Assembly (NCBI GenBank): GCA_035513335.1
Contig: DATKCE010000017.1
Coordinates: 13,255-77,254 of the forward strand
Direction of reading: 5' to 3'
Length of the DNA stretch: 64,000 nt
Origin: Acidimicrobiia bacterium
Lineage (GTDB): Bacteria > Actinomycetota > Acidimicrobiia > Spongiisociales > ZC4RG35
A model generated the notes under the pieces. That model was not told where the DNA came from. It did no database searches and saw nothing but the letters and a program-made list of their open reading frames with translations. Numbering within the stretch: position 1 is the stretch's first letter; the number at the start of each line of letters is the position of its first letter. Below, piece by piece: positions 27,108-62,845 of the stretch. The position numbers and the translations under genes were made by a program.

Positions 27108-27133
27108 GTTTACCACCGGCCTCGGGCGGGTAG
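27108..27133 (+). promoter_or_regulatory. SigB/SigF-type promoter motif GTTTAC-N14-GGGTAG
   Basis: Read directly. The -10 ends 31 nt before the GTG 27165 of dodecin, with AAGGAG between them. Confidence 0.6.
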
Positions 27134-27164
27134 TGGCATGACACGGCGAGAGAAGGAGAAAACC

Positions 27165-27365
27165 GTGTCAGTCGCGAAGGTCATCGAGCTCAACGCACGC
27201 TCAACCGACAGCTTCGAGGATGCGATCAAAGAGGCCATTGTCAAGGCGGGAGAGACCGTCGACAACATCGAAGGCGCCTGGGTGAAAGAACAGAAGGTCG
27301 TCGTCGAGAACGGCGCCATCACCGGATACGACGTCAATCTCAAGATCACATTCGTAGTTTCCTGA
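27165..27365 (+). CDS. Dodecin (flavin-binding) family protein
   Basis: AAGGAG 6 nt before GTG 27165. 66-aa translation VAKVIELNARSTDSFEDAIKEAI...GYDVNLKITF matches the dodecin family. Confidence 0.8.
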   Translation: MSVAKVIELNARSTDSFEDAIKEAIVKAGETVDNIEGAWVKEQKVVVENGAITGYDVNLKITFVVS

Positions 27366-27379
27366 CCTGCTGAGCCATC

Positions 27380-27901
27380 GTGTGGTTCGACAGTTGGGAG
27401 TCATTACTCCGGATCCTCGTTCATGGGACCCTGGGCTACATCGCTCTCGTCTTCATGCTGCGGTTGAGTGGCAAACGGACTCTGTCGAAGATGAACGCCT
27501 TCGACTTCGTAATCACCATCGCCCTCGGCTCTGTCTTCGCCACACTTCTCATCTCCGACATGGTTCCACTTGCCGACGGCGTGGTGGCCATTGCACTTCT
27601 GGTGACTCTGCAGTGGGTTGCATCCTCCATCTATGTGAGATCGGAGCGTTTCGAGTCGATCGTGAAGGGCACTCCTCAACTCGTCTACTGGAAGGGCGAT
27701 TACCTCGAGGACGTGCTGCGCCGGGAAAGGATCACCCACGAGGAGGTCCAGGCCGCGATGCGGGGCAACAGCATCGCGAATGGCAGCGGCGCGGCAGCCG
27801 TCCTCGAGACCGACGGCAGCCTCTCAGTGGTCCCTCTCGGGAATGGTGAAGGGGTCGAGGCGATGGAGCGGGTCCGGTCACCCGGCGATCGACCCATCTG
27901 A
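27380..27901 (+). CDS. DUF421 (YetF-like) membrane protein
   Basis: N-terminal TM helices with LRLSGKRTLSKMNAFDFVITIALGS, followed by a soluble C-domain. Confidence 0.7.
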   Translation: MWFDSWESLLRILVHGTLGYIALVFMLRLSGKRTLSKMNAFDFVITIALGSVFATLLISDMVPLADGVVAIALLVTLQWVASSIYVRSERFESIVKGTPQLVYWKGDYLEDVLRRERITHEEVQAAMRGNSIANGSGAAAVLETDGSLSVVPLGNGEGVEAMERVRSPGDRPI

Positions 27902-27930
27902 GCCTGCCGGTGACCGGGCAGAGCAAGGAC

Positions 27931-28716
27931 TCATATACGGACGGCCAGCCCCCGGATCCGCTCGTTGATCTCCGCTGCCGTCTCCAGCAACTTGGGCTTG
28001 AACACCTCGTGCATGCCCTCGATGTCGACCCGGGAGGCATGACAGCTGACGTTCATCGCAGCGATGACCTCGCCTCTGCGGTTCCTGATCGGTGCCGCGA
28101 TCGAGCGCACGCCCTCCTCCAGCTCCTGGTCCACCAGTGCGAAGCCTTCTTCACGACACTGGTGGATCAGTTCGCGGAACCGTTCCCGGTCGGTGACGGT
28201 GTGGGGGGTCAGCTCCTCGAGGTCGGTTCGCTCGATGGCCTCCTCGAGTTCCTCATCGGCCAACCCGGCGAGGAGTACGCGACCCATCGACGTCGGGTAG
28301 GCGGGAAGCCGGGACCCGAGCGCCAGGGCGATGGTCATGATTCGCTTCGTGGGGACCCGGGCTACGTAGACGATATCGGGCCCGTTGAGAACGGACATCG
28401 AAGATGACTCCTGGACCTGGTCGACCAGCCGCTCCATGGACGGCTGGGCGACGTCGACTACTCGTAATGACGAGAGGAATGAGTATCCCAGTTCGAGGAC
28501 CTTCGGCGTGAGAGCGAACGACCGTCCTCGCTGATCGACGTACCCGAGCTCGGCGAGGGTCAGCAACACCCGTCGCGCGGTGGCTCGGGTGAGTCCGGTG
28601 TGCTCCGCCACCTCACTGAGCGTCTGGCCCGGGTTCTCACCGGAGAACGAGTTGATCACCAACAGGCCACGCTCGAGAGACTGGATGAAATCGGCCGAGT
28701 GGCCCCTGGCGGTCAC
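27931..28716 (-). CDS. IclR-family transcriptional regulator (PcaR/PobR-like)
   Basis: HTH LSEVAEHTGLTRATARRVLLTLAELGY plus an IclR effector domain. GTG 28716 overlaps the pcaJ stop (GTGA). Confidence 0.8.
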   Translation of the reverse strand: MTARGHSADFIQSLERGLLVINSFSGENPGQTLSEVAEHTGLTRATARRVLLTLAELGYVDQRGRSFALTPKVLELGYSFLSSLRVVDVAQPSMERLVDQVQESSSMSVLNGPDIVYVARVPTKRIMTIALALGSRLPAYPTSMGRVLLAGLADEELEEAIERTDLEELTPHTVTDRERFRELIHQCREEGFALVDQELEEGVRSIAAPIRNRRGEVIAAMNVSCHASRVDIEGMHEVFKPKLLETAAEINERIRGLAVRI

Positions 28717-29489
28717 TTCCCCTCCCCCGAGTGCGCCGCCGCGGTGCGCTCCTTGAGATCGCGCAGGATGCGCAGCTCGTCGGCCGTGGGAGGGTCGGTC
28801 ACATCGAGATCTTCGGCTATCCGCAGTGCCCACCCAGTCTTCTCGACGATCTCATCGGTGTCGACTCCCGGATGGATCGCCACCAGCTCAAGCTCGTGAC
28901 TCGTCGGGTGGGGCCGTAGCACCCCGAGATCGGTGATCACCACGGTGGGCCCTGCTCCGCGATGCCCCTCCCTCCCTTCCCCGCTCCGTCCGTACCCGAC
29001 CGATGACACGAAATCGACGGTCTCGACGAACGTGCGCTCCGAGTGCCGCAGCATCACGATCACCTCACCTGCCGAAGAGGCGATCTCCGGTGCGCCTCCT
29101 GCTCCGGGGAGACGCACCTTGGGATCGTCGTACGGGCCGATGACCGTGCTGTTGAGATTGCCGAAGCGATCGATCTGAGCGGCTGAGAGGAAACCCACGT
29201 CGACCCGTCCCGCCTGCAACCAGTAGGCGAAGATCTCGGGAACACTCACCACCAGGTCGGCCTGCTCGGCCAACTCTCCATCACCGATGGAGAGGGGCAG
29301 GACCTTCGGTCGGGTGCCGATGGTCCCGGACTCATAGATGAGCACCACTTCGGGGGCGTGGGAGAGACGGGCCAGGTTGGCCGCCTCGCTGGGAAGGCCG
29401 ATGCCGACGAAGCACACCTGCCCGCCGCGGAGTTGGCGGGCAGCCACGATCGACATGATCTCGTCGGCGGTGTAGTTGACGTCAGTCAT
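28713..29489 (-). CDS. pcaJ: 3-oxoadipate:succinyl-CoA transferase subunit B
   Basis: CoA-transferase B-subunit-like (ESGTIG region), paired with the A subunit, in a pca context. Confidence 0.75.
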   Translation of the reverse strand: MTDVNYTADEIMSIVAARQLRGGQVCFVGIGLPSEAANLARLSHAPEVVLIYESGTIGTRPKVLPLSIGDGELAEQADLVVSVPEIFAYWLQAGRVDVGFLSAAQIDRFGNLNSTVIGPYDDPKVRLPGAGGAPEIASSAGEVIVMLRHSERTFVETVDFVSSVGYGRSGEGREGHRGAGPTVVITDLGVLRPHPTSHELELVAIHPGVDTDEIVEKTGWALRIAEDLDVTDPPTADELRILRDLKERTAAAHSGEGK

Positions 29490-30354
29490 CGGCCACCAGG
29501 GAGGTCACGGAGTCATCGTCCACCGCGGCCAGATATGTGGAGAAATCGTCCGGTCCGGTGACATACCTCCCGATCCACCTGGCAAAGACCTCGCGGTATC
29601 TCGAGATGGCATCCCACCGGGTGTAGAAGGCGTTGTCGCGTTCGGTGTATCCCATCGAGTAGGAGGGGTGCGACCCGCGCGGGACTTCGGCGATGGCATC
29701 GATCGTCCAGGAGGGAAGGACCACACCGTTGGGACCCCGGAACTCGATGTCACCGACCACCTCCTCGACGGTGACCACCACTCTTGATGCGGCCAGGGCC
29801 ACCTCGCGCTGCACTCCCGTGATACCCCACAAGCCCACGTTGCCTTGTCTGTCCGCCTGCTGGGCGTGGATCACCGCTACGTCGGGGTTGATGGCAGGCA
29901 CCGCCGTCACCTCCTGACCGTCGAACGGAGAAGTGAGGGTGGCGACGTTGGTGTGCGCACTCAGGTCGGTGCCGATGTAGCCGTGGAGGATGCCGAAAGG
30001 GAGCCCGGCGGCCCCGGCGGAGTAACGGGCTGCCATGCCGGCATGGGTGTGCTCTTCGATCTCGAGAGGCCGTGGGTATCCGTGCTCGACCGCGTCGCGC
30101 AGTCGATGGAGTGATCCGACACCGGGATTACCACCCCAGGAGAAGACCAGCTTGGCGGCACACCCCGCCCCGATCAACTGGTCGTAGATGACATCGGGGG
30201 TCATCCGGATCAGTGTGAGGTCCCTTTTCGCCTGTCGGATCACCTCGTGGCCGGCAGCGACGGGGATGAGATGGGTGAAACCCTCCATCGCAACGACAGA
30301 GCCATCATCGACCAGATCGGCGATCGCCGTGTGAAGAGAGGTGATCTCGGCCAA
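29482..30354 (-). CDS. pcaI: 3-oxoadipate:succinyl-CoA transferase subunit A
   Basis: CoA-transferase A-subunit-like translation. Overlaps the pcaJ start. Divergent from pobA. Confidence 0.75.
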   Translation of the reverse strand: MAEITSLHTAIADLVDDGSVVAMEGFTHLIPVAAGHEVIRQAKRDLTLIRMTPDVIYDQLIGAGCAAKLVFSWGGNPGVGSLHRLRDAVEHGYPRPLEIEEHTHAGMAARYSAGAAGLPFGILHGYIGTDLSAHTNVATLTSPFDGQEVTAVPAINPDVAVIHAQQADRQGNVGLWGITGVQREVALAASRVVVTVEEVVGDIEFRGPNGVVLPSWTIDAIAEVPRGSHPSYSMGYTERDNAFYTRWDAISRYREVFARWIGRYVTGPDDFSTYLAAVDDDSVTSLVADD

Positions 30355-30371
30355 TTCAGCAGATCCTCCGC

Positions 30372-30386
30372 GTTCGCATTACGAAC
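30372..30386. promoter_or_regulatory. Candidate IclR (PcaR-type) operator GTTCGCATTACGAAC
   Basis: 15-bp inverted repeat GTTCG-N5-CGAAC in the pcaI/pobA divergent region. Resembles the Pseudomonas PcaR box GTTCGATAATCGCAC as I recall it. Confidence 0.45.
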
Positions 30387-30478
30387 ATTTGTGCGAGAAC
30401 CGTACGAATTGGCTATACACGTGTCAAGCGTGCCCTCGTCACAGCCCGATAGCCTCAGTCGGTAAGGATAGACCACAC

Positions 30479-31666
30479 ATGAGCGAGACCGGTGACAAGA
30501 CCCAGGTAGCGATCGTCGGTGGGGGACCTGCCGGGTCGCTGCTCGCCTATCTCCTCCATCTCCAGGGCGTCGAGTCGATCGTGTTCGAGCTGCGCACCCG
30601 TGAGTACGTCCTGGAGCGGATTCGCGCCGGAGTCATCGAGCACGGCAGCGGCGAGGTCCTCAGGCAGGCAGGGCTCGGCGACCGCATGGACCGGGAGGGT
30701 TTCTTCCACGACGGGGTCAATCTCGCCTTCGCCGACACCTTGCTGAACGTGAACTTCAAGGAGCTCACCGACAAGCACGTGATCATCTACGGCCAGACCC
30801 AATTGCAGAAAGATCTCTATGACGCAATCGACGGGGCCGGGATCACCCTGATCGACGAAGCAGAGAGCATCGGCCTCCACGGTATCGAGACCGACTCACC
30901 CACCGTCACCTTCACCCGCCACGGAGAAGAGCATGAGCTCTCCTGTGACTACATCGCCGGTTGTGACGGCGCCCACAGCACCACCCGGGAGTTCGTGCCG
31001 CCATCGATCCGGGAGACATTCGAGCGGCTCTACCCCTTCGTGTGGGTCGGCATCCTCTCCGAGACCCCACCGGTCAACGACGAGCTGATCTACGCCAACC
31101 ATCCCGACGGATTCGCCCTCTGCTCGATGCGCAACGAGAACCTGAGCCGCTACTACGTTCAAGGCGCGGCGGACGACACCCCCGACGACTGGCCCGATGA
31201 TCTCTTCTGGGAGACGCTCGCGACACGACTCCCCAACGAGGCCTCCGATCGGCTCGTCACCGGCCCGTCGATCGAAAAATCTGTCACGCCCCTTCGCAGC
31301 TGGGTGTCGGAGCCTCTGCGTCACGGTCGTCTCTTCCTCGCCGGCGACGCGGCCCACATCGTGCCCCCCACGGGAGCCAAGGGGCTCAACCTGGCGATAT
31401 CCGACGTGGTCTACCTGGCCGAGGCTCTGGTCGGCTTCTACTCGGACGGGTCGGAGACCGGGCTCGACGAGTACTCCGACCGAGCCCTGGCGCGGGTCTG
31501 GAAGGCGGTTCGTTTCTCGTGGTGGATGACCTCGACCATGCATCGCTTTCCCGGGATGTCCAACGACTTCGATCGCCGACTGCAACGCACCGAGCTCGAG
31601 TACCTGTTCTCCTCGCAGAACGCACAGCGGGCCATGGCTGAGAACTATGTTGGGCTTCCCTTATGA
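30479..31666 (+). CDS. pobA: 4-hydroxybenzoate 3-monooxygenase
   Basis: TQVAIVGGGPAGSLLAYLL, YVLERIRAGVIEHG and DYIAGCDGAHS are collinear with PobA. Confidence 0.9.
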   Translation: MSETGDKTQVAIVGGGPAGSLLAYLLHLQGVESIVFELRTREYVLERIRAGVIEHGSGEVLRQAGLGDRMDREGFFHDGVNLAFADTLLNVNFKELTDKHVIIYGQTQLQKDLYDAIDGAGITLIDEAESIGLHGIETDSPTVTFTRHGEEHELSCDYIAGCDGAHSTTREFVPPSIRETFERLYPFVWVGILSETPPVNDELIYANHPDGFALCSMRNENLSRYYVQGAADDTPDDWPDDLFWETLATRLPNEASDRLVTGPSIEKSVTPLRSWVSEPLRHGRLFLAGDAAHIVPPTGAKGLNLAISDVVYLAEALVGFYSDGSETGLDEYSDRALARVWKAVRFSWWMTSTMHRFPGMSNDFDRRLQRTELEYLFSSQNAQRAMAENYVGLPL

Positions 31667-40880: not shown

Positions 40881-40906
40881 GTTTGACCAGGAGCCACGTC
40901 GGGTAT
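40881..40906 (+). promoter_or_regulatory. SigB/SigF-type promoter motif GTTTGA-N14-GGGTAT
   Basis: Read directly. The -10 ends 9 nt before ATG 40916, implying a leaderless or near-leaderless mRNA. Confidence 0.65.
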
Positions 40907-40915: not shown

Positions 40916-41122
40916 ATGGGTGACATCTGGTCGATTCTCCTGGTGGTCCTGGGCCTGTTCGCTCTCTACGCCGGCATAAAGCTGGCGACGGGGAACAAGC
41001 CGTGGGCCGACGATGCCATCGAGCCGACCTCCCCACCCGGCGACCCCGGTGCCGAAGGCATGGGCGTGGTGGGGCCTGGAGACATCTCCCCCGGTGTGCC
41101 CGAAGACGACTCAGAGGATTGA
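40916..41122 (+). CDS. Small membrane protein with an acidic Pro/Gly-rich tail
   Basis: One TM helix IWSILLVVLGLFALYAGI. No SD, but a promoter motif is placed for a leaderless start. Confidence 0.45.
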   Translation: MGDIWSILLVVLGLFALYAGIKLATGNKPWADDAIEPTSPPGDPGAEGMGVVGPGDISPGVPEDDSED

Positions 41123-41139
41123 GGATTCAGGAGGAACAA

Positions 41140-41574
41140 ATGCCCAAGACGCTGCTGTTCAGCATCGGCGTTGCCGCCGGTGCGGTGCTCGCATATCTAT
41201 TAGACCCCGACCGGGGACGCTCCCGTCGGGCCCGGCTCGCCGACCAGGCGGCGGCTCGAAGTCGGGACGTGTCCGACTCGGTGAGGAAGACCGCCGAGTA
41301 CCAGAAGGGAGTAGCGCGCGGAGTCATTCACGAGGTCGCCGACGTCCTTCGCCCGGAGCAGGACTACGACGATGAGACCCTGATGCAGAAGGTCCGCAGT
41401 GAGGCGCTCGGATATTGGGATGGATCCGACGACGTCGAGATCGACATTTCCGACGGCATGGTGCAGGTCACCGGCTCGGTCGACGACGAGGCTGCCCGAG
41501 AGCGTCTCATCGATTTGATCCGTCATGTCGACGGCGTCTCCATGATCGACGACCGCTTGCGAGTGGATGCCTGA
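41140..41574 (+). CDS. YtxH-like / BON-domain stress protein
   Basis: AGGAGG RBS. N-terminal helix plus charged region. C-terminal BON-like DGMVQVTGSVDDEAARERLIDLIRHVDGVSMIDDRLRV. Confidence 0.75.
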   Translation: MPKTLLFSIGVAAGAVLAYLLDPDRGRSRRARLADQAAARSRDVSDSVRKTAEYQKGVARGVIHEVADVLRPEQDYDDETLMQKVRSEALGYWDGSDDVEIDISDGMVQVTGSVDDEAARERLIDLIRHVDGVSMIDDRLRVDA

Positions 41575-46128: not shown

Positions 46129-48132
46129 ATGGACAACTCGCCCCGGCAGCTAGCAGCGGTGTGGTTCGCCGACATTGCGGGATACACCAGCCTCGCCAAT
46201 CGGGACGAGTCGGCAGCCCTGCGACTCGTGGGGATCTTCAATGAGGTGGCTCGAGAGCAGATAGAAGACAACGGCGGAACGGTGGTGAAGTTCGTGGGCG
46301 ACGGGGTACTTGCTTATGCACCGAGCGTCACCTCTGCCACCGGTGCCGTCCTCTCCCTGAGGGAGGTATTCGAGGAACGTTCGGCGCAGACCGGGATCGA
46401 TGCTCATCTCAGGATCGGAATGCATCTCGGCGATATCGCAATCGGTCCCGACGGAGACGTGTTCGGCGATGGCGTCAACATCGCCTCCCGGCTCGAGACC
46501 GCCGCCGGGCCCGGGCGCATCTACGTGAGCGAGGATCTGTGGCGACAATGCCGACAACGGGCCGAGCTGGAGTTCATCCCTCTAGGCCCGCGACATCTCA
46601 AGGGGTTGGAGAATCCCGTTTGGGTCTACGAACTCGCCCCTCCCGCGACCGATCCGGGCTCTGCCAACGATGACGCGGCCGGGCGGAATACGACCCACTC
46701 CCTGGCAATCCTCCCCTTCGACGTGCTCGGTTCCGGCGACGATCCGGTGTTTCTCGCCGCCGGCATTCACAACGACCTGCTCACCGAACTCAGCAAGAAC
46801 CCGAGCCTCACCGTGATCAGCCGGACATCGGTGATGGGTTACAGGCAACCAGCAAAGTCGATTCCCCGGATCGCGCATGAGCTCAACGTCGGATGGATCG
46901 TCGAAGGCGCGGTGCAGAGCGTCGGCAACAGGGTACGTCTGACCGTGCAGCTGATCGACGGGACGACAGATGTCCATCGTTGGGCGGACTATTTCGATCG
47001 CGAGCTCACCACCGAGAGCCTCTTCGAGATCCAGACAGAGCTCACCCAACAGATCAGTGAGTCGCTGCATGGCGAATTTGCCCAAGCTGGTGAGGCCGCC
47101 GGGCCGGCCACCAACAGCATGGAGGCCTATCGCCTGGTGACGGAGGGAAGGATGCAGTTCGACCGAAAGACCGAGGCCGGTCTGGCGAGGGCAAGGGAGC
47201 TGTTTCAGCGCGCCGTGGACCTCGATCCGGACTATGCACCAGCCTGGGTGGGACTCACCGACTCTCTGGCGATTACCGCCGACTACGGATACGGGGATAG
47301 GGGGTCACTGCTAGAGGCCGCCCATGTGGCCGTCGAACGGGCCCTCGAGCTCATGCCCGATTCTGCGGAAGCGCATAGCTCGCTCGGCTTGATCGCCGAG
47401 GGGGAACACGATGCCCCGAAGGCGCTTCGAGAATATGAGAAGGCGATGCAACTGGGTCCGAGCTACGCAGATGCCCACAGCTGGCACGGCTGGGTGTCTC
47501 TGGTGGTGGGACGAGCAGGACCGGCGTTCGAGAGTGTGTCGAGGTCCGTGGAGCTGAACCCCCTGTCCGCCGAAGCGGTGAGCAATCTGGCACTGTCGCA
47601 CCTGGCCCTTCGAGACCCGGCGTCGGCGATCGTCGAGGCTCGTCGCGCCGGGGAGCTGTCACCCGACTTCACCACAGCCACCTACTACGAGGCATTGGCG
47701 CGATACGACATGGGTGGATTCCAGGAGGCGGTGAACATCCTCACACCGCTGTCGGTCGCCGTCGCCGGCGAGCTGGCTGTCTCCTGGGCGTCGATGATGC
47801 CGGACGCGGCGCTGGCACTGGCCCAGATCCGAACGGGCAGACCAGACGCGGCGCGGGAGGTGCTGGCCACGATCGACGCCGAGGTGTATCCATTCGAGGC
47901 GGCGATGGTCCACGCCGGGATGGGAGACCTGCAGTCCGCGTACGAACTGTTCGGTAGAGCTGAACATGCTCCGTACGGCCCTGCCCTCGCCTTCCATCAT
48001 CACTTCCGTGACGTATGGAAGGACCTGCGCGACGACCCCCGCTACCACGAAATCGTGGATCTGGTCTATCGAAGCTGGAGAACGGAGCCCCCCGGCGGGG
48101 ATGCTCCCCCAAGTCGGGACGAATCCGGTTAG
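46129..48132 (+). CDS. Class III adenylate/guanylate cyclase domain protein with C-terminal TPR repeats
   Basis: AVWFADIAGYTSL, VKFVGDGVLAYA and GDGVNIASRLE. TPR-like repeats in the C-terminal half. Confidence 0.8.
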   Translation: MDNSPRQLAAVWFADIAGYTSLANRDESAALRLVGIFNEVAREQIEDNGGTVVKFVGDGVLAYAPSVTSATGAVLSLREVFEERSAQTGIDAHLRIGMHLGDIAIGPDGDVFGDGVNIASRLETAAGPGRIYVSEDLWRQCRQRAELEFIPLGPRHLKGLENPVWVYELAPPATDPGSANDDAAGRNTTHSLAILPFDVLGSGDDPVFLAAGIHNDLLTELSKNPSLTVISRTSVMGYRQPAKSIPRIAHELNVGWIVEGAVQSVGNRVRLTVQLIDGTTDVHRWADYFDRELTTESLFEIQTELTQQISESLHGEFAQAGEAAGPATNSMEAYRLVTEGRMQFDRKTEAGLARARELFQRAVDLDPDYAPAWVGLTDSLAITADYGYGDRGSLLEAAHVAVERALELMPDSAEAHSSLGLIAEGEHDAPKALREYEKAMQLGPSYADAHSWHGWVSLVVGRAGPAFESVSRSVELNPLSAEAVSNLALSHLALRDPASAIVEARRAGELSPDFTTATYYEALARYDMGGFQEAVNILTPLSVAVAGELAVSWASMMPDAALALAQIRTGRPDAAREVLATIDAEVYPFEAAMVHAGMGDLQSAYELFGRAEHAPYGPALAFHHHFRDVWKDLRDDPRYHEIVDLVYRSWRTEPPGGDAPPSRDESG

Positions 48133-49816: not shown

Positions 49817-50677
49817 ATGAGACTCGGGGGCTTGCTGCTGGCGACCGCAATCCTGGGTGCCGCTTGCGGGGGCATGGCGGAGGAGCCCTCCACCACCGCA
49901 ACCGACATCGACACCGACAGGACGCAGGCCTCCACCGCTGCTCCCACCACCGCTCTTCCCACCACTGACAGCGCAACTCCGGCCGGATCCGCTCCGGTCT
50001 GGTTCGGGGACCACATCTCGGTCGACGACTGTTTCGACGACACCTACGACGAGGACGGGGAGTGGTACTTCGCCGAGATGCCGGTGTTCGTCGACTGCGA
50101 GGTCCTCCACGACAACGAGGCCTACCACGTCTTCACCATCGACGACGGCACGGGATCGTTCCCTGGTGACGAGGCCTTCGACGACCTCGCTGCGGAGCTG
50201 TGCCGTGCCGAACTGGCGACCTTCCTCGGTGCCGATCCCGATCGCGGCGGCATCGACTGGTGGTGGGGATGGCCGCTGGAGGAGCAGTGGGATGCGGGAG
50301 CCCGACAAGCCTTCTGCGCGGCCTATCTTCCCGACGCCCACATGATTGGATCGATGCGGGGAGTCGAAACCGGATTCCGTCCAGCCGAACTTCCAGCGGT
50401 AGCGCCCGTGCCGGCGGGGGCGGTGTACGACGATCTCAGCTTCTCCGAGGACGGTGACCGGGTGGCGTCCTTCCTCATGCCGCCCTCCACCCTCGAGGAG
50501 GCGATAGAGGCGGCATTGGCAGCGGCGACCGAAGCGGGTCTGACACCCACGGGCGCCGGGAGGTCGGGCAGCGTCTTCGTCTTCCGCTTCGAGGCCGAGG
50601 GGGTGACGTACCCAGTGACCGTGTACGAGCAAACGGATGGCGAGATCGAGTGGTGGCTCTATTTCCCATCCGAGTGA
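49817..50677 (+). CDS. Hypothetical secreted lipoprotein (Cys-containing exported domain)
   Basis: GGGAGG RBS. Lipobox ILGAAC. T/A/P-rich linker. Any function call (septum-formation-like?) is only a weak impression. Confidence 0.6.
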   Translation: MRLGGLLLATAILGAACGGMAEEPSTTATDIDTDRTQASTAAPTTALPTTDSATPAGSAPVWFGDHISVDDCFDDTYDEDGEWYFAEMPVFVDCEVLHDNEAYHVFTIDDGTGSFPGDEAFDDLAAELCRAELATFLGADPDRGGIDWWWGWPLEEQWDAGARQAFCAAYLPDAHMIGSMRGVETGFRPAELPAVAPVPAGAVYDDLSFSEDGDRVASFLMPPSTLEEAIEAALAAATEAGLTPTGAGRSGSVFVFRFEAEGVTYPVTVYEQTDGEIEWWLYFPSE

Positions 50678-53329: not shown

Positions 53330-54067
53330 TCAGCCGACCAGCTTGCGGGCCTCGGTCTTCCAGCCGTCGACGGTGGACCTGGATGGCATCTGGTCGGGGG
53401 CATCGGGAAGCTCAACCGAGCGCATCTGCTCGATCAACTCCGAGGGCCTCGCTTCCGCCATCTGCTCCATCGTCCATATCCCGACCCTGTGCAACAGAGT
53501 CTGGTACGAGGGTCCGACACCGTCGATCCGGGTCAGGTCGACCTTGGCGCGCCAGCCCTCGATGGTCTCGGCGCCGAGCCCACTCGACGAGGCAAGCTTC
53601 TCGATGTCAGCCTCGCTCGTGGCGATGAGCTCCGCGATCCCGGACACACCGGCGGAACGGAGTCGATCGGCATATCCAGGACCGACTCCCTTGACCGTGG
53701 TGAGAGGCTCATCGGGCTCGACGAGCTGGAGACCGGACTCCGCCGTACCTCGGGCCTTGTCGAGACCCAGCTGGACCGCCTTGCGAGTCGAGTCGGCGGA
53801 GGTCCGGATCTCCCCGGCAACATTGGAGGAGCGAACCTTCTTCATGGCGCGCTCGATGACATCTTCGCCCTGGGCGACCCAGTCTTCGATCTCCTCGGCG
53901 AGATCCGCGCTGATCTCGGCTCGCGACTTCCGGAGCGTGTCGCTCAATTCGCTGACGCGGGCACTGAGTCCCTTGATCACCGCGACCGGGGCTCCAATCG
54001 CGGCATAGGCGGCCCTCTCCACCGAATCGAGAGCGTTGTCGCTGGTTCGTTCTGCTTTTCGTGTCAT
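53330..54067 (-). CDS. Helix-hairpin-helix / DUF4332-like protein with a helical N-terminal domain
   Basis: Repeated HhH-like segments VKGVGPGYADRLRSAGV and IDGVGPSYQTLLHRVGI. ATG 54067 fits a leaderless start from the promoter motif; the alternative is GTG 54076. Confidence 0.6.
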   Translation of the reverse strand: MTRKAERTSDNALDSVERAAYAAIGAPVAVIKGLSARVSELSDTLRKSRAEISADLAEEIEDWVAQGEDVIERAMKKVRSSNVAGEIRTSADSTRKAVQLGLDKARGTAESGLQLVEPDEPLTTVKGVGPGYADRLRSAGVSGIAELIATSEADIEKLASSSGLGAETIEGWRAKVDLTRIDGVGPSYQTLLHRVGIWTMEQMAEARPSELIEQMRSVELPDAPDQMPSRSTVDGWKTEARKLVG

Positions 54068-54076: not shown

Positions 54077-54102
54077 CTACCCGCCGGACGGGTTGGCTAA
54101 AC
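54077..54102 (-). promoter_or_regulatory. SigB/SigF-type promoter motif GTTTAG-N14-GGGTAG
   Basis: Read on the minus strand. The -10 ends 9 nt before ATG 54067. Confidence 0.6.
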
Positions 54103-54118: not shown

Positions 54119-54144
54119 GTTTTGCGCCCCCGACAGCCGGGTAA
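54119..54144 (+). promoter_or_regulatory. SigB/SigF-type promoter motif GTTTTG-N14-GGGTAA
   Basis: Read directly. AAAGGAG and TTG 54172 follow. Confidence 0.6.
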
Positions 54145-54171: not shown

Positions 54172-54363
54172 TTGACCCAGGAAACACCAACAGTCGTCGG
54201 TCGGAGGCCCGAGAAGTCCGGCAAGCGCCCAAAAACCCGGGACGAGGAGCGCATATGCTCCGAACAGTCTTGTGACACCAAGCTGAGTCGATACAACATC
54301 AGCGAAAATTGCTATCGGCACAAGCCGAAACGATTCCCAAGAGTGCGCGGCCGAATCAGGTAG
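54172..54363 (+). CDS. Small basic protein with a Cys/His cluster (possible zinc knuckle)
   Basis: AAAGGAG about 7 nt before TTG 54172. CSEQSCDTKLSRYNISENCYRH, i.e. C-x4-C-x12-C-x2-H. Promoter motif upstream. Confidence 0.5.
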   Translation: MTQETPTVVGRRPEKSGKRPKTRDEERICSEQSCDTKLSRYNISENCYRHKPKRFPRVRGRIR

Positions 54364-54384: not shown

Positions 54385-55089
54385 TCAGGCGGCGTGTCGT
54401 TCGACCTGACGCGCTGCCACTCGAGCGAACAACGCCATGGTCATGTTGATGGCGGCGTGCACCGCCACGGATGCCCAGATCGACCCGGTCTCGATGCGGA
54501 GCCACACCAGGAACGCGCCGGCGAGCGTGGTGCCGGCGACCGTGGCCGCGGTGTGGAGGAGTTTGGACCGAGCCCTCTTGTCCCCTGCCTGCGCCTGGTC
54601 GAGACCCGGGCCGATGTGCCACAGGCCGAACAAGCCGGCACCCATCCACAGAGCCACCTCTGTCGGATACAGCACTACGAGCGCGCCGTGCAGGACTCCA
54701 CGAAAGACCATCTCCTCGATGAGGGCAGTGAAAACGGGAATCCGGATGAAAATGTGGATGAAGGAGTCCCGTCGGCCGAGCGAGGCCATCCGGGGGTCGG
54801 CCAGCTGGTCACGCCACGCCGGACGCGACATCATCGCCATGCCCACCAGCCCCACCACCAGGACGGTGAGGAGTCCCCATCGGGTCACGATCGACGCGTC
54901 CGCCCCGGTGAAGCCGATACTGTCGAATCCGAAGAGGAGGCCGGCCCCAAAGGCGAGTCCGGCCCCGACCAGTCCGGTGACCATCGGAGCGACCCGGGTC
55001 CGCATGGGCGCCGGCAGGGTCATATAGATCAGAGTCTGGAACACGAGGGCATAGGCGGCCAGCGGGGCAACGGCGGTTGCGAGGGTCAT
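54385..55089 (-). CDS. CPBP-family (CAAX/Abi) intramembrane metalloprotease
   Basis: EEMVFRGVLH, FGLWH and HAAINM motifs. ATG 55089 chosen because the track start 55116 lies in the upstream terminator tail. Confidence 0.8.
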   Translation of the reverse strand: MTLATAVAPLAAYALVFQTLIYMTLPAPMRTRVAPMVTGLVGAGLAFGAGLLFGFDSIGFTGADASIVTRWGLLTVLVVGLVGMAMMSRPAWRDQLADPRMASLGRRDSFIHIFIRIPVFTALIEEMVFRGVLHGALVVLYPTEVALWMGAGLFGLWHIGPGLDQAQAGDKRARSKLLHTAATVAGTTLAGAFLVWLRIETGSIWASVAVHAAINMTMALFARVAARQVERHAA

Positions 55090-55161: not shown

Positions 55162-55323
55162 TCAGATCAGTAGTAGTGCGCTCTGGGCCCGACCTGACGC
55201 CCGAAGGCGCCGAGGATCCAGAGAAATGATTCCAACGACGGCGAGAATCCCGCCGAGGGTGTAGAGGATGCCGATGTTGAGCAGCGCGCCCAGCAGCAGC
55301 AGTATTACTCCGAGGATGATCAT
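55162..55323 (-). pseudogene. Small hydrophobic peptide gene with an apparent +1 frameshift
   Basis: MIILGVILLLLGALLNIGILYTLGGILAVVGI is followed, one frame over, by LWILGAFGRQVGPRAHYY-stop (stop at 55167-55169). Removing one base of the A3 run at 55224-55226 joins them. Confidence 0.55.
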
Positions 55324-55361: not shown

Positions 55362-55387
55362 GTACCCCCCGGCGGCTCATCAGAAAC
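55362..55387 (-). promoter_or_regulatory. SigB/SigF-type promoter motif GTTTCT-N14-GGGTAC
   Basis: Read on the minus strand, upstream of AAAGGA and ATG 55323. Confidence 0.6.
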
Positions 55388-55416: not shown

Positions 55417-55611
55417 TCAGAGTCCGGGATCGACCGGCGCGTCGACAGGCGGCTGCTGCGGTGGCTGGTCGGCTTCGCTGTCAGACATCGCCATCAATGC
55501 CACGACCACCAGGGCGACTATGGCGATCAATCCGATCATCGCCACCCAGGCACCGCGCCCCGACTGTTCATCGCGCGGCGTCTTCGTCGATGAAACATCT
55601 ACCGGGTGCAT
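55417..55611 (-). CDS. Small membrane-anchored protein with a Pro/Gln-rich tail
   Basis: GGAAGGAG 5 nt before ATG 55611. One TM helix WVAMIGLIAIVALVVVALMAM. Promoter motif upstream. Confidence 0.55.
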   Translation of the reverse strand: MHPVDVSSTKTPRDEQSGRGAWVAMIGLIAIVALVVVALMAMSDSEADQPPQQPPVDAPVDPGL

Positions 55612-55638: not shown

Positions 55639-55664
55639 GTACCCGGCATCTACATCCGACAAAC
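55639..55664 (-). promoter_or_regulatory. SigB/SigF-type promoter motif GTTTGT-N14-GGGTAC
   Basis: Read on the minus strand. The -10 ends 27 nt before ATG 55611. Confidence 0.6.
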
Positions 55665-57085: not shown

Positions 57086-57131
57086 GCGACCGACGGCATC
57101 TACCGGCGTCGGTTCCTCTACGGTCGCGCCC

Positions 57132-58808: not shown

Positions 58809-58812
58809 GATC

Positions 58813-58838
58813 GTTTGCCGTTGATCGCCTCCGGGTAT
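58813..58838 (+). promoter_or_regulatory. SigB/SigF-type promoter motif GTTTGC-N14-GGGTAT
   Basis: Read directly. AAAGGAG and ATG 58864 follow. Confidence 0.65.
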
Positions 58839-58863
58839 CCGCTGGAAGCGAAAGGAGTAGGTC

Positions 58864-59118
58864 ATGGGAGAGAAGCACGGTCCATCCATCAAAGACGACG
58901 AGCAGTACGAAGCGCTGCGTGAAGAGGGGATGAGCAAGGAGAAGGCAACCCGAATCGCCAATACCCCGCGCCAGGAGGCAGCCACGAAAGGCGGCCAGGC
59001 CCCTCCCTACGAGCAGTGGACGGTGGACGAGCTCATGGAACGAGCTGCCGAGTTCGGCATCGAAGGTCGCTCCACCATGACCAAGGACGAGCTCATCGAT
59101 GCCCTGCGTGATCGCTGA
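58864..59118 (+). CDS. Small Rho_N-domain protein
   Basis: C-terminal WTVDELMERAAEFGIEGRSTMTKDELIDAL matches the Rho N-terminal/SAP-like motif. Confidence 0.7.
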   Translation: MGEKHGPSIKDDEQYEALREEGMSKEKATRIANTPRQEAATKGGQAPPYEQWTVDELMERAAEFGIEGRSTMTKDELIDALRDR

Positions 59119-59189
59119 CTGATCAAACAGGCTCGACAACACCGGGGGCGGCCAGGGAAGTGGCACCGCCTCCTTCCCCACTCAGAGTG

Positions 59190-59215
59190 GTTTCGAGGCC
59201 GGTTTAGCCGGGTAT
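59190..59215 (+). promoter_or_regulatory. SigB/SigF-type promoter motif GTTTCG-N14-GGGTAT
   Basis: Read directly. The -10 overlaps the track start ATG 59214 and ends 10 nt before ATG 59226. Confidence 0.65.
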
Positions 59216-59225
59216 GGCGATCTCG

Positions 59226-60068
59226 ATGAAGCGCGAGTCCCGAGGCGAGATCACAACCGACATCAGTTCCGGCGTGGTCTATCAGACTTTCGGTCCGGTG
59301 ACCACAGACACCCGGGCCGAGGCAGAAACCATGATGGAACGGCTCGCCGATCTCGCTCCCCGCCAGGTCCTCTACGCCAAGGTCAAGGCCAGCAGCAACA
59401 ACGAGCGCGATCCCGATCAGAGGTTTCTCGTACAGGGGACCATGGACATCTCGGGGGAGGTCATCCGGGCCCAAGCGGCTGCACCGACGGCGGGCGAGGC
59501 TCTCAAGACGGTCGAGGACCGGCTGGAACGCCGGGTCAGCCGTCTCGCCGAGCGCCGACGCGACACCTCGAAGCGCCCGCCCTCCACCCCATCAGGAAGC
59601 TGGCGCAGCGGCGACTTGCGGGAGCGAAGACCCGACTACTTCGACCGACCGCTCGATCAGCGCATGGTGGTGAGGCGGAAGACGTTCTCGCCGGGCGAGC
59701 GGATCCCGGTCAGCGACGCCCTCTTCGACCTAGAAGTCCTCGACCACAGGTTCTACCTCTTCGTCGACGACGCCGACCAGAAGCCGTCGATCGTGTACGA
59801 GGAAGACGATGCAGTGGCGATCCGCAAGGTCGATGGTTCACGCCCGGACCAAGGGACTCTCCCCATCGAGTTGACCGTGAACGAGACTCCCGCCCCCCGG
59901 TTCACGGTCACCGAAGCGGTCGAGTCGCTGAACGTGAGCGGTATGCCGTTCTTCTTCTTCCTCGACACCGAGAGGAACCTCGCCAGTGTGCTGTATCGCC
60001 GCTACGACGGACACTACGGGCTGGTCGTGGCCCCGGCCCACGTCTCGTCGCATGAGAGCGAAGACTGA
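59226..60068 (+). CDS. HPF/RaiA-family ribosome-hibernation-like protein with two tandem S30EA C-terminal domains
   Basis: N-terminal RaiA-like region (...ISGEVIRAQAAAPTAGEALKTVEDRLERRV). Two C-terminal repeats: HRFYLFVDDADQKPSIVYEEDD and MPFFFFLDTERNLASVLYRRYDGHYGLV. Confidence 0.7.
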   Translation: MKRESRGEITTDISSGVVYQTFGPVTTDTRAEAETMMERLADLAPRQVLYAKVKASSNNERDPDQRFLVQGTMDISGEVIRAQAAAPTAGEALKTVEDRLERRVSRLAERRRDTSKRPPSTPSGSWRSGDLRERRPDYFDRPLDQRMVVRRKTFSPGERIPVSDALFDLEVLDHRFYLFVDDADQKPSIVYEEDDAVAIRKVDGSRPDQGTLPIELTVNETPAPRFTVTEAVESLNVSGMPFFFFLDTERNLASVLYRRYDGHYGLVVAPAHVSSHESED

Positions 60069-60083
60069 GCCGGGGATATCTCT

Positions 60084-60108
60084 GTTTGACGAGAGCCGAA
60101 CCGGGTAA
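60084..60108 (+). promoter_or_regulatory. SigB/SigF-type promoter motif GTTTGA-N13-GGGTAA
   Basis: Read directly. GAGGAG (60121) and ATG 60134 follow. Confidence 0.6.
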
Positions 60109-60133
60109 GGGCCACGGCGCGAGGAGACACGGA

Positions 60134-60640
60134 ATGCCCGCCCGACATGGCTGGAAACTCAGACCCTCACCACGACCGGGATTCACGGTGCTCGAAGCGT
60201 CGCGTGAACTGTCCACGGCTCCTGTCGTGGTCGCACTCCACGACTCGCTCCACGCATTCCGGCTGTTTCGCTCCGGCGTCGACGAGGCGATGGGGAGGGC
60301 CTGCGATCTGGTAGTGCTCGACTTCGGAGAGCTTCCCCTTCGTGAGCAACTCCGGGCTACGTCGGAGCCGCATCATGAGATCGATGCCCTCCGGGCCCTC
60401 TGCTCCAACCCGCATGTGAAGGTGATCCGACAGTATCCGGGCGAGAACGGTCTCGAAAGGGTGGTGTCGTTCTGTGAATCGGTCGGAGCCTCGCTCCTCA
60501 TCCTGGGAGCCGACTACGCCAGTTCCTCGAGCCTCGACGGCGCACCCACTACCAGGCTCTTCCGCGGGTTGTTCGACGTGCTGGTGATCACCGACCCGCC
60601 GGAAGAGGTCGACGTTCCGGCGACGGGGTCCGACGGGTAA
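60134..60640 (+). CDS. Universal-stress-protein-like domain protein (degenerate)
   Basis: USP-like layout VVVALHDS...LLILGADY...DVLVITDP. No clear ATP-binding G-x2-G-x9-G-S/T motif seen. Confidence 0.5.
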   Translation: MPARHGWKLRPSPRPGFTVLEASRELSTAPVVVALHDSLHAFRLFRSGVDEAMGRACDLVVLDFGELPLREQLRATSEPHHEIDALRALCSNPHVKVIRQYPGENGLERVVSFCESVGASLLILGADYASSSSLDGAPTTRLFRGLFDVLVITDPPEEVDVPATGSDG

Positions 60641-60750
60641 GGCAAGATCGCCGGCTCACAACCGGGTGATCCCAGTGGTGATCACCAACGGCCCCCACGC
60701 CTGACACGCTCGTCTCACTCACCTCGGCAATGGGGGAGACGCTCGGGAAC

Positions 60751-61269
60751 TCAGCGGTCTCGATCCTCTCTGAATCTCACCAGTGGGAGGTAGAACCAGG
60801 ACCATGCGGAGACAACTGCGACCAGGGTGGTCGCTACTGCCGCCAGGGGGTCGGTGAATACGAGCGACGACACCAGATAGACCACCGCAACGATCGACAC
60901 CAGGAAGAAGACGTTCCCGGCGATGGTGAGCTTGGTGGCGTACAACACGTGACTTCGAGAGTTGCGTTTGATGCCGGTGATGGGACCGCGTACGCGTTGG
61001 TGGACGCTGGGCGCGATGAGCAATACCGAGGCCAGGGCGGCACTGATGAACGCCACATAGAACACGATCGTGTTCGGACCGCTGACGTCCCCGAACGACG
61101 CCTGGAGAGGCAACACCAGCAGGAACGAGAACAGCACCATCACCCCGGGGATCGTGGTTCGAAGCCCCTCCAGCAGGGCGCGGAACTCGTCGTCGACGTC
61201 ACCATCCGGGCCCTTGGTCTCAGACTCCGTGTCTCGGTCTCTTGCGATGTCCTCCACTTCGCCCACCAT
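60751..61269 (-). CDS. DUF6328-like membrane protein
   Basis: EFRALLEGLRTTIPGVMVLFSFLLVLPLQASF and further TM helices. Confidence 0.6.
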   Translation of the reverse strand: MVGEVEDIARDRDTESETKGPDGDVDDEFRALLEGLRTTIPGVMVLFSFLLVLPLQASFGDVSGPNTIVFYVAFISAALASVLLIAPSVHQRVRGPITGIKRNSRSHVLYATKLTIAGNVFFLVSIVAVVYLVSSLVFTDPLAAVATTLVAVVSAWSWFYLPLVRFREDRDR

Positions 61270-61324
61270 CAAACTCCCGGTTCCCCTTGTCGGCAAGTTC
61301 CACCTCCCCGGCGCGCCCTCGGAG

Positions 61325-61351
61325 GTTTGAACTCGGGGGCACCCCGGGTAC
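61325..61351 (+). promoter_or_regulatory. SigB/SigF-type promoter motif GTTTGA-N15-GGGTAC
   Basis: Read directly, upstream of GGAAGGAG and ATG 61398. The likely transcript also carries the sigma gene. Confidence 0.6.
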
Positions 61352-61397
61352 CCGCACTGGACCTGGCCCAACCAGGGCTTTCTGGAAGGAGCCAGAA

Positions 61398-61655
61398 ATG
61401 CAGGAAACCATTGCCAGAGACATCGAGGAGATTCACGACCGTCTCGCCGAGATCGAGGACGAGCGCATCAACCTCGACGAGGGCGACGAAACCCGCCGTG
61501 AGCAACTGTTGCGGGAGGAGCGCCGGCTCGAACTCCGCCTCGGCGAGATCGAGGAGCGAGTCGCCGACGATCGGGGCGTCGCCGAGGAGAAGGCGGCGAA
61601 CCAAGCGGACCTGACCCGCACCCCGAGACTTCCCGACTCGCACGACGAGCCCTGA
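61398..61655 (+). CDS. Small acidic coiled-coil protein
   Basis: GGAAGGAG RBS. 85-aa E/R-rich heptad-like translation. Confidence 0.55.
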   Translation: MQETIARDIEEIHDRLAEIEDERINLDEGDETRREQLLREERRLELRLGEIEERVADDRGVAEEKAANQADLTRTPRLPDSHDEP

Positions 61656-61704
61656 GCAAGATCCGAAGTCCTATTCGCAACGTGCCGGACATAAGATCGC
61701 CGCG

Positions 61705-62814
61705 ATGCCCGAGCCAACCGAGCTGAACCTCTCTGTCGAGCCCTCCTCCGCCGCAATGGCGCGCGCCTTCTTGCGAGAGCACGCCACCCTCGACAGCATG
61801 CGTCACGCCGAAGCCGATCTACTGGTGACCGAGCTGATCGGGAACGTGATCGAACATTCCCCCGATTGTGAAGAGCTCGTGGTGAGCGTCCGCCAGGAAC
61901 CCGATCGTGGGTTGGTGGTCACGGTCTCACACCGACACCCCCAACCCATCGATGAGCCGGCATCGGGTGTCGGGTTCATGCTCGTCGAGCGTCTCTCCCG
62001 CAATTGGGGCCACGAGCACGACGGGGAACGGCTGAGCGTCTGGTTCGTCCTGAGGACACCGGGAACCACTTCGATCGGCGAGGACGTGACCGATGCCCAC
62101 CTCTTCGAGCGAATGGCCGACGATCCGGCGGCCTACTCCGACGAGCTGGTGCGTCGTCACGCCGATCTGGCTTCTTCGATCGCGCGGCGCTATCGGGGCA
62201 AGGGGGTGGACGAAGACGATTTGCTCCAAGTGGCGCACATGGCGCTCCTCAAGGCCATCCAGCGCTATGACCCCTCGCTCGGGAAGATCAGGCCCTACGC
62301 GGCGGCGACCATCTCCGGCGAGCTGAAGAGACTGCTGCGTGACAAAGGCTGGTCGGTCCGGGTCCCCAGATCCCTCCAGGAGCGCTCCCTAGAAGTCGCC
62401 CGGGCGTCGGAGGAGCTGACTCAGCGCCTCAATCGGCCTCCTCAGGTCCACGAGTTGGCGAAGCAACTAGGACTCACGGAGGTGGAGATACTGGAGGCCG
62501 TCGACGCCCGGCAGGCATATGCCTCCAGCTCCATCGACAAACCGGCTGAGAACACGGGGGTGAGCCTTCTCGACCGCATCGAGGACGACGACGCCCAGCT
62601 CCGGCTCGCCGACGATCGGATCATGGTCGAAGAGGCGATCCGAGCCCTACCAGAGCGCCAGCAGAGGATCGTCGATCTCCGGTTCAACGAGGACATGACC
62701 CAGACAGAGATCGCCGAGGAGCTCGGGATATCGCAAATGCACGTGTCTAGATTGCTCGCCAACGCCTTGAAGCAGCTGGAAAAGTCCATCGGCATGGGCC
62801 CGGCGTCGACCTGA
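61705..62814 (+). CDS. Group-3 (SigB/SigF-type) sigma factor with an N-terminal RsbW-like HATPase (anti-sigma) domain fused in frame
   Basis: Residues ~1-120 have an anti-sigma-kinase layout (LLVTELIGNVIEHS ... GVGFMLVERLSRNWG ... VWFVL). Residues ~137-369 carry sigma regions 2-4 (DLLQVAHMALLKAIQRYDP, ISGELKRLLRDKGWSVRVPRSLQE, MTQTEIAEELGISQMHVSRLL). There is no stop between the two parts. Confidence 0.8.
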   Translation: MPEPTELNLSVEPSSAAMARAFLREHATLDSMRHAEADLLVTELIGNVIEHSPDCEELVVSVRQEPDRGLVVTVSHRHPQPIDEPASGVGFMLVERLSRNWGHEHDGERLSVWFVLRTPGTTSIGEDVTDAHLFERMADDPAAYSDELVRRHADLASSIARRYRGKGVDEDDLLQVAHMALLKAIQRYDPSLGKIRPYAAATISGELKRLLRDKGWSVRVPRSLQERSLEVARASEELTQRLNRPPQVHELAKQLGLTEVEILEAVDARQAYASSSIDKPAENTGVSLLDRIEDDDAQLRLADDRIMVEEAIRALPERQQRIVDLRFNEDMTQTEIAEELGISQMHVSRLLANALKQLEKSIGMGPAST

Positions 62815-62819
62815 ACGCG

Positions 62820-62845
62820 GTTTAGCCTGAGTCCGTTAGGGGTAC
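62820..62845 (+). promoter_or_regulatory. SigB/SigF-type promoter motif GTTTAG-N14-GGGTAC
   Basis: Read directly. Begins 6 nt after the sigma stop codon. Confidence 0.6.

Follow-up and report, generated by a model that had tools for sequence, protein, structure and literature searches.

Are the short GTTT and GGGTA boxes that recur between the genes of an Acidimicrobiia genome promoters, and which sigma factor would read them? The question is raised by a stretch of 64,000 nt from an uncultured Acidimicrobiia bacterium (contig DATKCE010000017.1, positions 13,255–77,254; assembly GCA_035513335.1), the whole of which is called the window here. To our knowledge, transcriptional regulation is wholly unstudied in this widespread and mostly uncultured class, and a literature search, which was not exhaustive, found no description of a SigB/SigF regulon or of an RsbW–sigma fusion in Acidimicrobiia. 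Our results argue strongly that 11 intergenic sites in the window are promoters of a group-3, SigB/SigF-type sigma factor and that together they would form a general-stress and dormancy regulon island, whose cognate sigma is most likely the product of the gene at 61705–62814.

Distribution of the motif in the window

The pattern GTTTNN-N13–15-GGGTA (that is, GTTT-N15–17-GGGTA) was searched for on both strands of the whole window, and the matches were placed on a gene map made from codon-usage log-odds, in which several starts were corrected by hand. The window contained 12 exact matches, while the mean of 100 dinucleotide-preserving shuffles was 0.11 (maximum 2; none of the 100 reached 12). 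Intergenic DNA represents 8.6% of the window, and 11 of the 12 matches were wholly intergenic; when each intergenic segment was shuffled separately (2000 shuffles), 0.05 matches were expected (maximum 2). This corresponds to an enrichment of about 200-fold in intergenic DNA, and the binomial probability of at least 11 of 12 matches falling in 8.6% of the sequence is 2e-11. Because the GC content of the intergenic DNA (63.8%) is about equal to that of the bulk of the window, base composition does not explain the excess. The intergenic sites and the genes behind them are as follows (RBS, ribosome-binding site; distances are from the −10 hexamer to the start codon).

27108–27133 (+): GTTTAC-N14-GGGTAG, before a dodecin gene (GTG start, 27165–27365) and then a YetF/DUF421 gene (27380–27901); 31 nt to the GTG, RBS AAGGAG
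40881–40906 (+): GTTTGA-N14-GGGTAT, before a gene for a small, apparently leaderless membrane protein (40916–41122) and then a YtxH+BON protein gene (41119–41574); 9 nt to the ATG
54077–54102 (−): GTTTAG-N14-GGGTAG, before a leaderless gene for a DUF4332/helix-hairpin-helix (HhH) protein (53330–54067); 9 nt to the ATG at 54067
54119–54144 (+): GTTTTG-N14-GGGTAA, before the gene for a 63-aa basic Cys/His mini-protein (TTG start, 54172–54363); RBS AAAGGAG
55362–55387 (−): GTTTCT-N14-GGGTAC, before the gene for a 53-aa hydrophobic peptide (55162–55323)
55639–55664 (−): GTTTGT-N14-GGGTAC, before the gene for a 64-aa single-pass membrane mini-protein (55417–55611); RBS GGAAGGAG
58813–58838 (+): GTTTGC-N14-GGGTAT, before a DUF7218+Rho_N protein gene (58864–59118)
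59190–59215 (+): GTTTCG-N14-GGGTAT, before a leaderless gene for a long HPF-like ribosome hibernation protein (ATG start, 59226–60068); 10 nt to the ATG
60084–60108 (+): GTTTGA-N13-GGGTAA, before the gene for a 168-aa protein of unassigned family (60134–60640)
61325–61351 (+): GTTTGA-N15-GGGTAC, before an operon of a coiled-coil protein gene (61398–61655) and the sigma gene
62820–62845 (+): GTTTAG-N14-GGGTAC, directly after the sigma stop codon and before the gene for a free RsbW-like HATPase protein (62852–63238)

All 11 sites are aimed at the start of the next gene, which lies 6–46 nt downstream, and two of them, at 54102 (−) and 54119 (+), stand back to back. The distances fall into two classes: in the first, the start codon comes 9–10 nt after the −10 hexamer with no RBS (starts 40916, 54067, and 59226), and in the second it comes after 25–46 nt with an RBS of the GGAG type. 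The RsbW-like gene lies outside both classes, and its start is ambiguous (TTG 62852, ATG 62861, or ATG 62882).

A preliminary description of this stretch, made by eye, had listed the same sites. Checked base by base, its positions, strands, hexamers, and spacers were exact for all 11; its proposal that each site is directed at the next gene, at leaderless distance or with an RBS between, also held in 11/11 cases, with the ambiguity at the RsbW-like start. The rarity by chance that it had supposed is confirmed by the computed expectation given above. Three start codons were moved relative to that description, to GTG 27165 (dodecin), ATG 54067 (HhH), and ATG 59226 (HPF). Its statement that an incomplete scan by eye had shown no equally good match in coding regions is not quite right, given the twelfth exact match:

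50609–50634 (−): GTTTGC-N15-GGGTAC, antisense near the 3′ end of a Septum_form-domain gene (49817–50677)

This is probably a chance match outside the regulon, as about 0.1 matches are expected in the window and one coding match is compatible with that number; we did not count it as an antisense promoter, chance being likelier.

Allowing one mismatch in the scan of the window added only 10979 (+), 20326 (+), and 61372 (−, aimed at a DUF6328 gene). The sites are thus unusually uniform, with exact GTTT and GGGTA boxes in 11/11. The three one-mismatch sites were not counted; the exact motif was found before none of 21 DUF6328 orthologs.

The −10 element of the sigma operon lies within a palindrome, GGGTACCC (61346–61353), so that the minus strand also has a GGGTA there. 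Paired with a weak −35 (GTTGGG, spacer 15–16; region 61346–61373), this second element is directed towards the divergent DUF6328 gene (60751–61272). This minus-strand site is probably not functional, given the lack of the exact motif before the DUF6328 orthologs.

The boxes match experimentally defined SigF promoters of Mycobacterium and SigB promoters of Bacillus and Streptomyces, as the preliminary description had proposed. The experimental SigF consensus of M. smegmatis is GTTT-N15–17-GGGTA, and many SigF-dependent genes of that species have the motif 8–11 nt from the start codon (PMC4694148). The SigB promoter of B. subtilis is GTTTAA-N12–14-GGG(A/T)A(A/T), and Pctc reads GTTTAA-N14-GGGTAT (PMC8346170).

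Conservation in related genomes

Scanning one genome per species gave 26 Acidimicrobiia loci that encode the same full-length sigma protein (5–21 kb each, 419 kb in total). They contained 206 exact matches to the motif, whereas shuffling predicts about 6; of those found, 193 (94%) were intergenic, and a single 21-kb locus had up to 19. The spacing from GTTT to GGGTA was N16 in 139 cases, N17 in 38, and N15 in 16. The distance from motif to start codon peaked sharply at 10 nt and broadly at 25–37 nt. The start codons exactly 10 nt after GGGTA come without an RBS, which fits the expectation for leaderless mRNAs.

Conservation was also examined gene by gene, by asking for the exact motif within 200 nt upstream of each ortholog. 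As controls we used DUF885, DUF6328, and DUF2254, neighbours that have no motif in the window. The number of orthologs or loci with the motif was:

RsbW-like protein: 23/26, the best conserved site
DUF7218+Rho_N protein: 9/10 loci, with a diverged spacer
Coiled-coil gene preceding sigma: 7/7 loci
Hydrophobic peptide: 5/5 loci
DUF4332/HhH protein: 4/4 loci
HPF: 3/3 loci
64-aa membrane mini-protein: 2/2 loci
168-aa protein (60134–60640): 2/4 loci
DUF885 (control): 0/17
DUF6328 (control): 0/21
DUF2254 (control): 0/4

In the aligned promoter sets only GTTT and GGGTA persist; between and around them the sequences have diverged completely. With the control genes as internal negatives, this amounts to a clean phylogenetic footprint. 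Where the coiled-coil gene is missing, the motif stands directly upstream of sigma (L004, L005, L010, L011, L019, L020, and L025). The YtxH/BON homologs of L011 and L021 are likewise behind the motif, and the site at 54119 (+) has a counterpart in the same position in L001 and L002. The densest cluster of motifs in the related loci always lies around the fused sigma gene. In L001 the promoter island continues, with at least eight more sites in the next 8 kb beyond the equivalent of the window end.

Genes behind the sites

The products had been described beforehand as general-stress types. That characterization stands for HPF, YtxH/BON, and dodecin, and does not stand for the label "USP-like" given to the protein at 60134–60640, for which there was no Pfam (even at E up to 10), NCBIfam, or PDB-sequence match. 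The label was dropped, as neither this protein nor two orthologs matched a family.

Family assignments were clear for several of the other products. The dodecin matched Pfam Dodecin (2e-22), and the next gene encodes YetF_N and DUF421 domains. The protein downstream of the small membrane protein has a BON domain (3e-11) and a YtxH domain; the HhH protein matched DUF4332 (1e-18) and HHH_5, and the Rho_N protein matched DUF7218 (9e-19) and Rho_N (1e-7). The HPF-like protein matched Ribosom_S30AE_C, the C-terminal dimerisation domain, at 2e-24, and Ribosomal_S30AE, weakly and N-terminally, at 1e-5. It is unusually long, with 280 aa and a long charged linker, has no NCBIfam match, and is apparently leaderless.

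In the related loci, further genes behind the motif encode CsbD-like, Dps/ferritin, DUF2383, AhpC/TSA, and GlsB-type (Transgly_assoc) proteins and a baeRF-family protein. In Bacillus, Staphylococcus, and Mycobacterium, CsbD, Dps, and HPF typify the SigB and SigF regulons. In S. aureus, hpf is under SigB control (PMC6256015).

The baeRF protein, of about 372 aa, belongs to the bacterial archaeo-eukaryotic release factor family 3 (baeRF_family3; 6e-16) and stands behind the motif in five genomes (e.g., L002, 13075 (−)). Together with HPF it gives a hint of translation or ribosome-rescue functions in the regulon.

The Cys/His mini-protein (54172–54363) had no Pfam or NCBIfam match. Its 63 residues are very basic and have a C-x4-C-x13-C-x2-H pattern (ICSEQSCDTKLSRYNISENCYRH), and a role as a small zinc-binding protein associated with nucleic acids or ribosomes is conceivable. 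Downstream of the hydrophobic peptide, on the same strand, lies a gene for an Rce1-like CAAX protease (54385–55089). Elsewhere in the window, at 46129–48132 (+), a 667-aa protein has an N-terminal adenylate/guanylate cyclase catalytic domain followed by TPR repeats; there is no motif upstream of its gene, and it is a possible signalling input.

The candidate cognate sigma factor and its neighbours

Three adjacent genes at the end of the window are relevant to the question of what reads the sites:

61705–62814 (+): candidate cognate sigma, a 369-aa fusion of an RsbW/UsfX-fold domain (aa 1–120), an acidic linker, and sigma regions 2, 3, and 4
62852–63238 (+): free RsbW-like GHKL protein with N, G1 (DDGPG), and G2 boxes, a candidate kinase or anti-sigma partner
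63239–63652 (−): STAS-domain anti-sigma-factor antagonist (STAS 8e-14; TIGR00377 61.6 vs. 53.45 bits)

Sigma regions 2, 3, and 4 occupy the C-terminal 230 residues of the fusion (Pfam 7e-15, 4e-14, and 3e-17, respectively). The protein scored above the curated SigB/SigF/SigG cut-off (TIGR02980, 240.8 vs. 234.35 bits) and below both the SigB equivalog model (TIGR02941, 188.5 vs. 315) and the SigF subfamily model (NF005514, 205.4 vs. 372). By these models it is a member of the SigB/F/G family and not an ortholog-level match to SigB or SigF. The closest solved structures to its sigma part are S. aureus SigB (1e-40) and SpoIIAB-bound SigF (1e-33). It has in common with S. aureus SigB the region 4.2 helix SQMHVSRL and the segment RDKxWSVxVPR; in the alignment to 8x6g_H, ISQMHVSRL stands against LSQMHVSRL, and RDKGWSVRVPR against RDKTWSVHVPR. 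More than 100 full-length relatives have 68–94% identity, and the named ones come from metagenome-assembled genomes (MAGs) of Acidimicrobiia.

No SigB/F/G-type sigma other than this fused protein is encoded in the window or in any of the 26 related loci. Its operon stands behind the motif, which implies positive autoregulation. On the grounds of this position and autoregulation, the product of 61705–62814 is most likely the cognate sigma of the sites.

The N-terminal domain, that is, the first ~120 residues (61705–62088 = 128 aa), is in frame with sigma in 26/26 genomes and in more than 100 protein clusters. The free RsbW-like protein encoded next to it is its paralog (hhalign probability 96.7%, E 4.5e-10). 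An AlphaFold2 (AF2) model of the domain alone had a predicted local distance difference test score (pLDDT) of 87.5 and a predicted template modelling score (pTM) of 0.82. The top 14 PDB fold matches of the domain were all UsfX, RsbW, SpoIIAB, or the RsbW domain of Rv1364c (TM 0.61–0.73); they include UsfX–SigF (8jzt), B. subtilis RsbW (6m36/6m37), SpoIIAB (1tid), UsfX–RsfB (8ih8, TM 0.73), and Rv1364c RsbW (3ke6). Two other searches were uninformative for this domain: a profile search of PDB sequences gave only marginal matches (DevS ATP-binding domain, E 0.14; a related 126-aa chain, E 0.11), and sigma matches dominated the fold search with the full-length model.

The domain keeps the N-box (ELIGNVIEH) and a G2-like GVGF, and its G1 box (DxGxG) is replaced by the invariant H76 and P79 (VSHxHPxP). 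Since the G1 ATP-binding box is lost, kinase activity of the domain is improbable.

When 1.84 billion representatives were searched with the domain, only seven clusters reached E ≤ 1e-10, namely four fusions of 361–393 aa, one 494-aa protein, and two apparent fragments; more distant matches were free HATPase proteins of 115–170 aa. The fusion is thus confined to a handful of 50%-identity clusters worldwide. Because the clusters are few and the distant matches are free proteins, the fusion appears to be a narrow, lineage-specific derivative of the usual rsbW–sig gene pair. In two Solirubrobacterales loci (L027, 9243–13617; L028, 6342–14658), unfused SigB/F-type sigma genes have three to four exact motif sites around them. 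From the presence of the motif near these unfused genes, the promoter class would be older than the fusion.

We also considered an internal translation start at the conserved Met137, from which a free sigma would be made, and rejected it: there is no conserved Shine-Dalgarno sequence upstream, and five of the 26 loci have a non-start codon there (CTG, CTC, or GCG), three of these with ATG in an adjacent codon. In L020, a MAG with a long contig, the N-terminal domain is split in two frames (10001–10310; high-scoring segment pairs 10001–10198 and 10200–10310), probably through a single-base assembly error rather than as a real pseudogene.

The free RsbW-like protein matched HATPase_c (4e-14) and, weakly, SpoIIAB, RsbA, and RsbW. 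The STAS protein has the motif FMDSTGL with a phosphorylatable Ser, and all 26 Acidimicrobiia loci contain its gene. In the window this gene stands second in a convergent operon; the first gene (63649 to beyond 64000, −) is cut off by the window end and encodes a protein of about 124–134 aa with no family match (L001, 11944–12370). The motif stands upstream of this first gene in eight related loci, for example at 12370 (−) in L001, equivalent to about 64075 of the window. A promoter of the STAS operon would thus lie just past the window end, at about 64075.

Alternative explanations of the sites

The rival that survives best takes the sites as genuine SigB/SigF-type promoters that are read mainly, or also, by a paralog encoded outside the window, so that the role of the fused sigma would be narrower or different. 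Its force comes from S. coelicolor, in which such promoters are recognised in common by nine SigB homologues and the targets of each cannot be told apart by sequence (PMC8346170), and from the fact that 64 kb of the genome were visible. We nevertheless regard it as unlikely, as no second SigB/F/G-type gene was seen in the window or in the 26 related loci of 5–21 kb, the densest motif cluster surrounds the fused sigma, and the motif stands before the operon of this sigma as well as before both partner genes. Such clustering is the usual signature of a cognate sigma: in M. smegmatis, a dense promoter cluster (MSMEG_1766–1804) adjoins sigF (PMC4694148).

A second rival, which we consider highly improbable, sees in the boxes a transcription-factor binding site or the remnants of a dispersed intergenic repeat. 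The motif is indeed short, repeated, and intergenic, with two sites back to back at 54102/54119 and one overlapped by the palindrome GGGTACCC at 61346–61353. A repeat or operator does not account for the conservation of GTTT and GGGTA alone amid diverging spacers and flanks. The fixed spacing of 15–17 nt, the strand, which is always that of the downstream gene, and the bimodal start distance (10 nt and 25–37 nt) are the geometry of promoters, and the boxes equal an experimentally proven promoter consensus (PMC4694148, PMC8346170).

Chance, or an artefact of AT-richer intergenic DNA, is refuted: intergenic DNA can be T-richer and one exact match (50634 (−)) does fall in coding sequence, but the intergenic GC content of 63.8%, the 11 sites found against 0.05 expected, the 206 against about 6 in independent genomes, and the ortholog-specific conservation leave it next to no probability.

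The interpretation as a SigB/SigF-type stress regulon, already offered in the preliminary description, is therefore supported by the motif statistics, the conservation before orthologs, the family of the sigma factor, and the gene products.

A possible mode of regulation

From these observations we infer the transcription start sites, the dependence of the sites on this sigma, and a scheme of inhibition in cis. Region 4.2 of the sigma would read the −35 element GTTT, and region 2.4/3.0 the −10 element GGGTA 15–17 nt downstream. Transcription would start about 7–10 nt after the −10, giving either leaderless mRNAs or short leaders with a GGAG RBS. The fused RsbW-fold domain, probably kinase-dead, would hold the sigma inactive in cis or within a dimer, until the unphosphorylated STAS protein binds the N-terminal domain and frees the sigma. 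The free RsbW paralog has intact ATP-binding boxes and would be induced by the sigma; it could then phosphorylate the STAS serine and so reset the system by negative feedback, while the promoter of the sigma operon would provide positive feedback. Alternatively, the free paralog could heterodimerise with the N-terminal domain, in the way that RsbW3, itself SigF-dependent and a source of feedback, does with RsbW1 in M. smegmatis (PMC7693655). A precedent for such a split between a non-kinase anti-sigma and a kinase paralog exists in the same species, where RsbW1 acts as the anti-sigma and its paralog RsbW2 as the kinase (PMC7693655).

The general stress response of the Acidimicrobiia as a class may be driven by a sigma with its own fused, kinase-dead anti-sigma, released by a STAS protein and served by a separate RsbW kinase. 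We put this tethered partner switch forward tentatively, and far less firmly than the promoter assignment itself.

Several points weigh against this scheme or against parts of the promoter assignment. The classical partner switch needs a PP2C phosphatase, and none of the RsbU/RsbP/SpoIIE type was found among the ~45 window proteins scanned, a scan that was not exhaustive. With its N-box kept and its G1 lost, the N-terminal domain could be a docking or dimerisation domain instead of an inhibitor. The AF2 model of the full-length sigma (pTM 0.42) has no confident inter-domain arrangement and lends no weight to a state in which the domain is docked and the sigma inhibited. For the RsbW-like gene, the start codon and, with it, the leader are uncertain. 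Finally, the 64 kb seen are only a part of the genome, and other SigB/F paralogs may exist.

Comparison with known systems

Mycobacterium SigF offers the closest parallels. The consensus is identical, there are leaderless genes with the motif 8–11 nt from the start, and the promoters cluster by the sigma gene. The sigma operon is autoregulated, an extra RsbW paralog is under the same type of promoter, Dps and STAS genes are in the regulon, and the fold of the N-terminal domain is closest to UsfX (8jzt, 8ih8). The Acidimicrobiia system differs in that the RsbW/UsfX-like domain is fused to the N-terminus of sigma and has lost its G1 box, and in that the sigma is under the SigF-model cut-off (205 vs. 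372).

With the SigB systems of B. subtilis and S. aureus it shares the promoter, members of the CsbD, Dps, HPF/YvyD, and YtxH types, a STAS antagonist with a phosphorylatable Ser, and a GHKL anti-sigma; S. aureus SigB is also the most similar solved structure to the sigma part (1e-40). The differences from Bacillus and Staphylococcus are that the downstream positions of the −35 are G/C-rich (GTTTSN), that the inter-hexamer spacer is mostly 14, that no stressosome or RsbU gene was seen among the proteins scanned, that the anti-sigma-like domain is fused, and that the SigB equivalog cut-off was missed.

The SigB homologues of S. coelicolor share the GC-rich actinobacterial setting, a −10 of GGGTA(C/T), a −35 of GTTT/GNNT, and osmotic and developmental stress genes. 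Their −35 is much more degenerate and their paralogs cross-recognise promoters, whereas the boxes described here are exact in 11/11.

Rv1364c of M. tuberculosis, a fused PAS-RsbU-RsbW-RsbV regulator of SigF, is a precedent for fused partner-switch modules in Actinobacteria; the fold search with the N-terminal domain also retrieved the RsbW domain of this protein (3ke6). In Rv1364c the regulators are fused to each other, whereas here an anti-sigma-type domain is fused to the sigma.

Regulation of a sigma in cis by an appended domain, as it is proposed here, also occurs with the C-terminal domains of ECF41/ECF42-type extracytoplasmic function (ECF) sigmas and with region 1.1 of primary sigmas. 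These extensions differ in that they belong to group 4 or group 1 sigmas, are C-terminal in the ECFs, and have an unrelated fold. We know of no GHKL/RsbW-type domain in such cis-regulated ECF or primary sigmas.

Meaning for the Acidimicrobiia

Promoters, sigma factors, and regulons of these kinds are already well known, and what is new is their occurrence in Acidimicrobiia. As this promoter type is textbook knowledge, the regulon alone is a confirmation and no surprise, while the fused RsbW-fold/sigma architecture, of which the literature searched has no description in any organism, is likely to be a new regulatory variant.

Because the motif is sharp and conserved, a simple pattern search can predict a stress and dormancy regulon straight from MAGs. 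This regulon is predicted to comprise HPF, Dps, CsbD, and BON/YtxH, together with a baeRF-family protein and many tiny proteins of membrane or basic type. For dozens of proteins whose function is unassigned, the motif also tells under what condition they would be expressed. The conserved fusion is, in turn, a natural test of anti-sigma binding between tethered partners.

The tethered switch, if true, would add a new regulatory architecture to those of group-3 sigma factors. The exact GTTT/GGGTA boxes would then offer an unusually clean regulon for the study of stress and dormancy in abundant, uncultured actinobacteria of soil and water.

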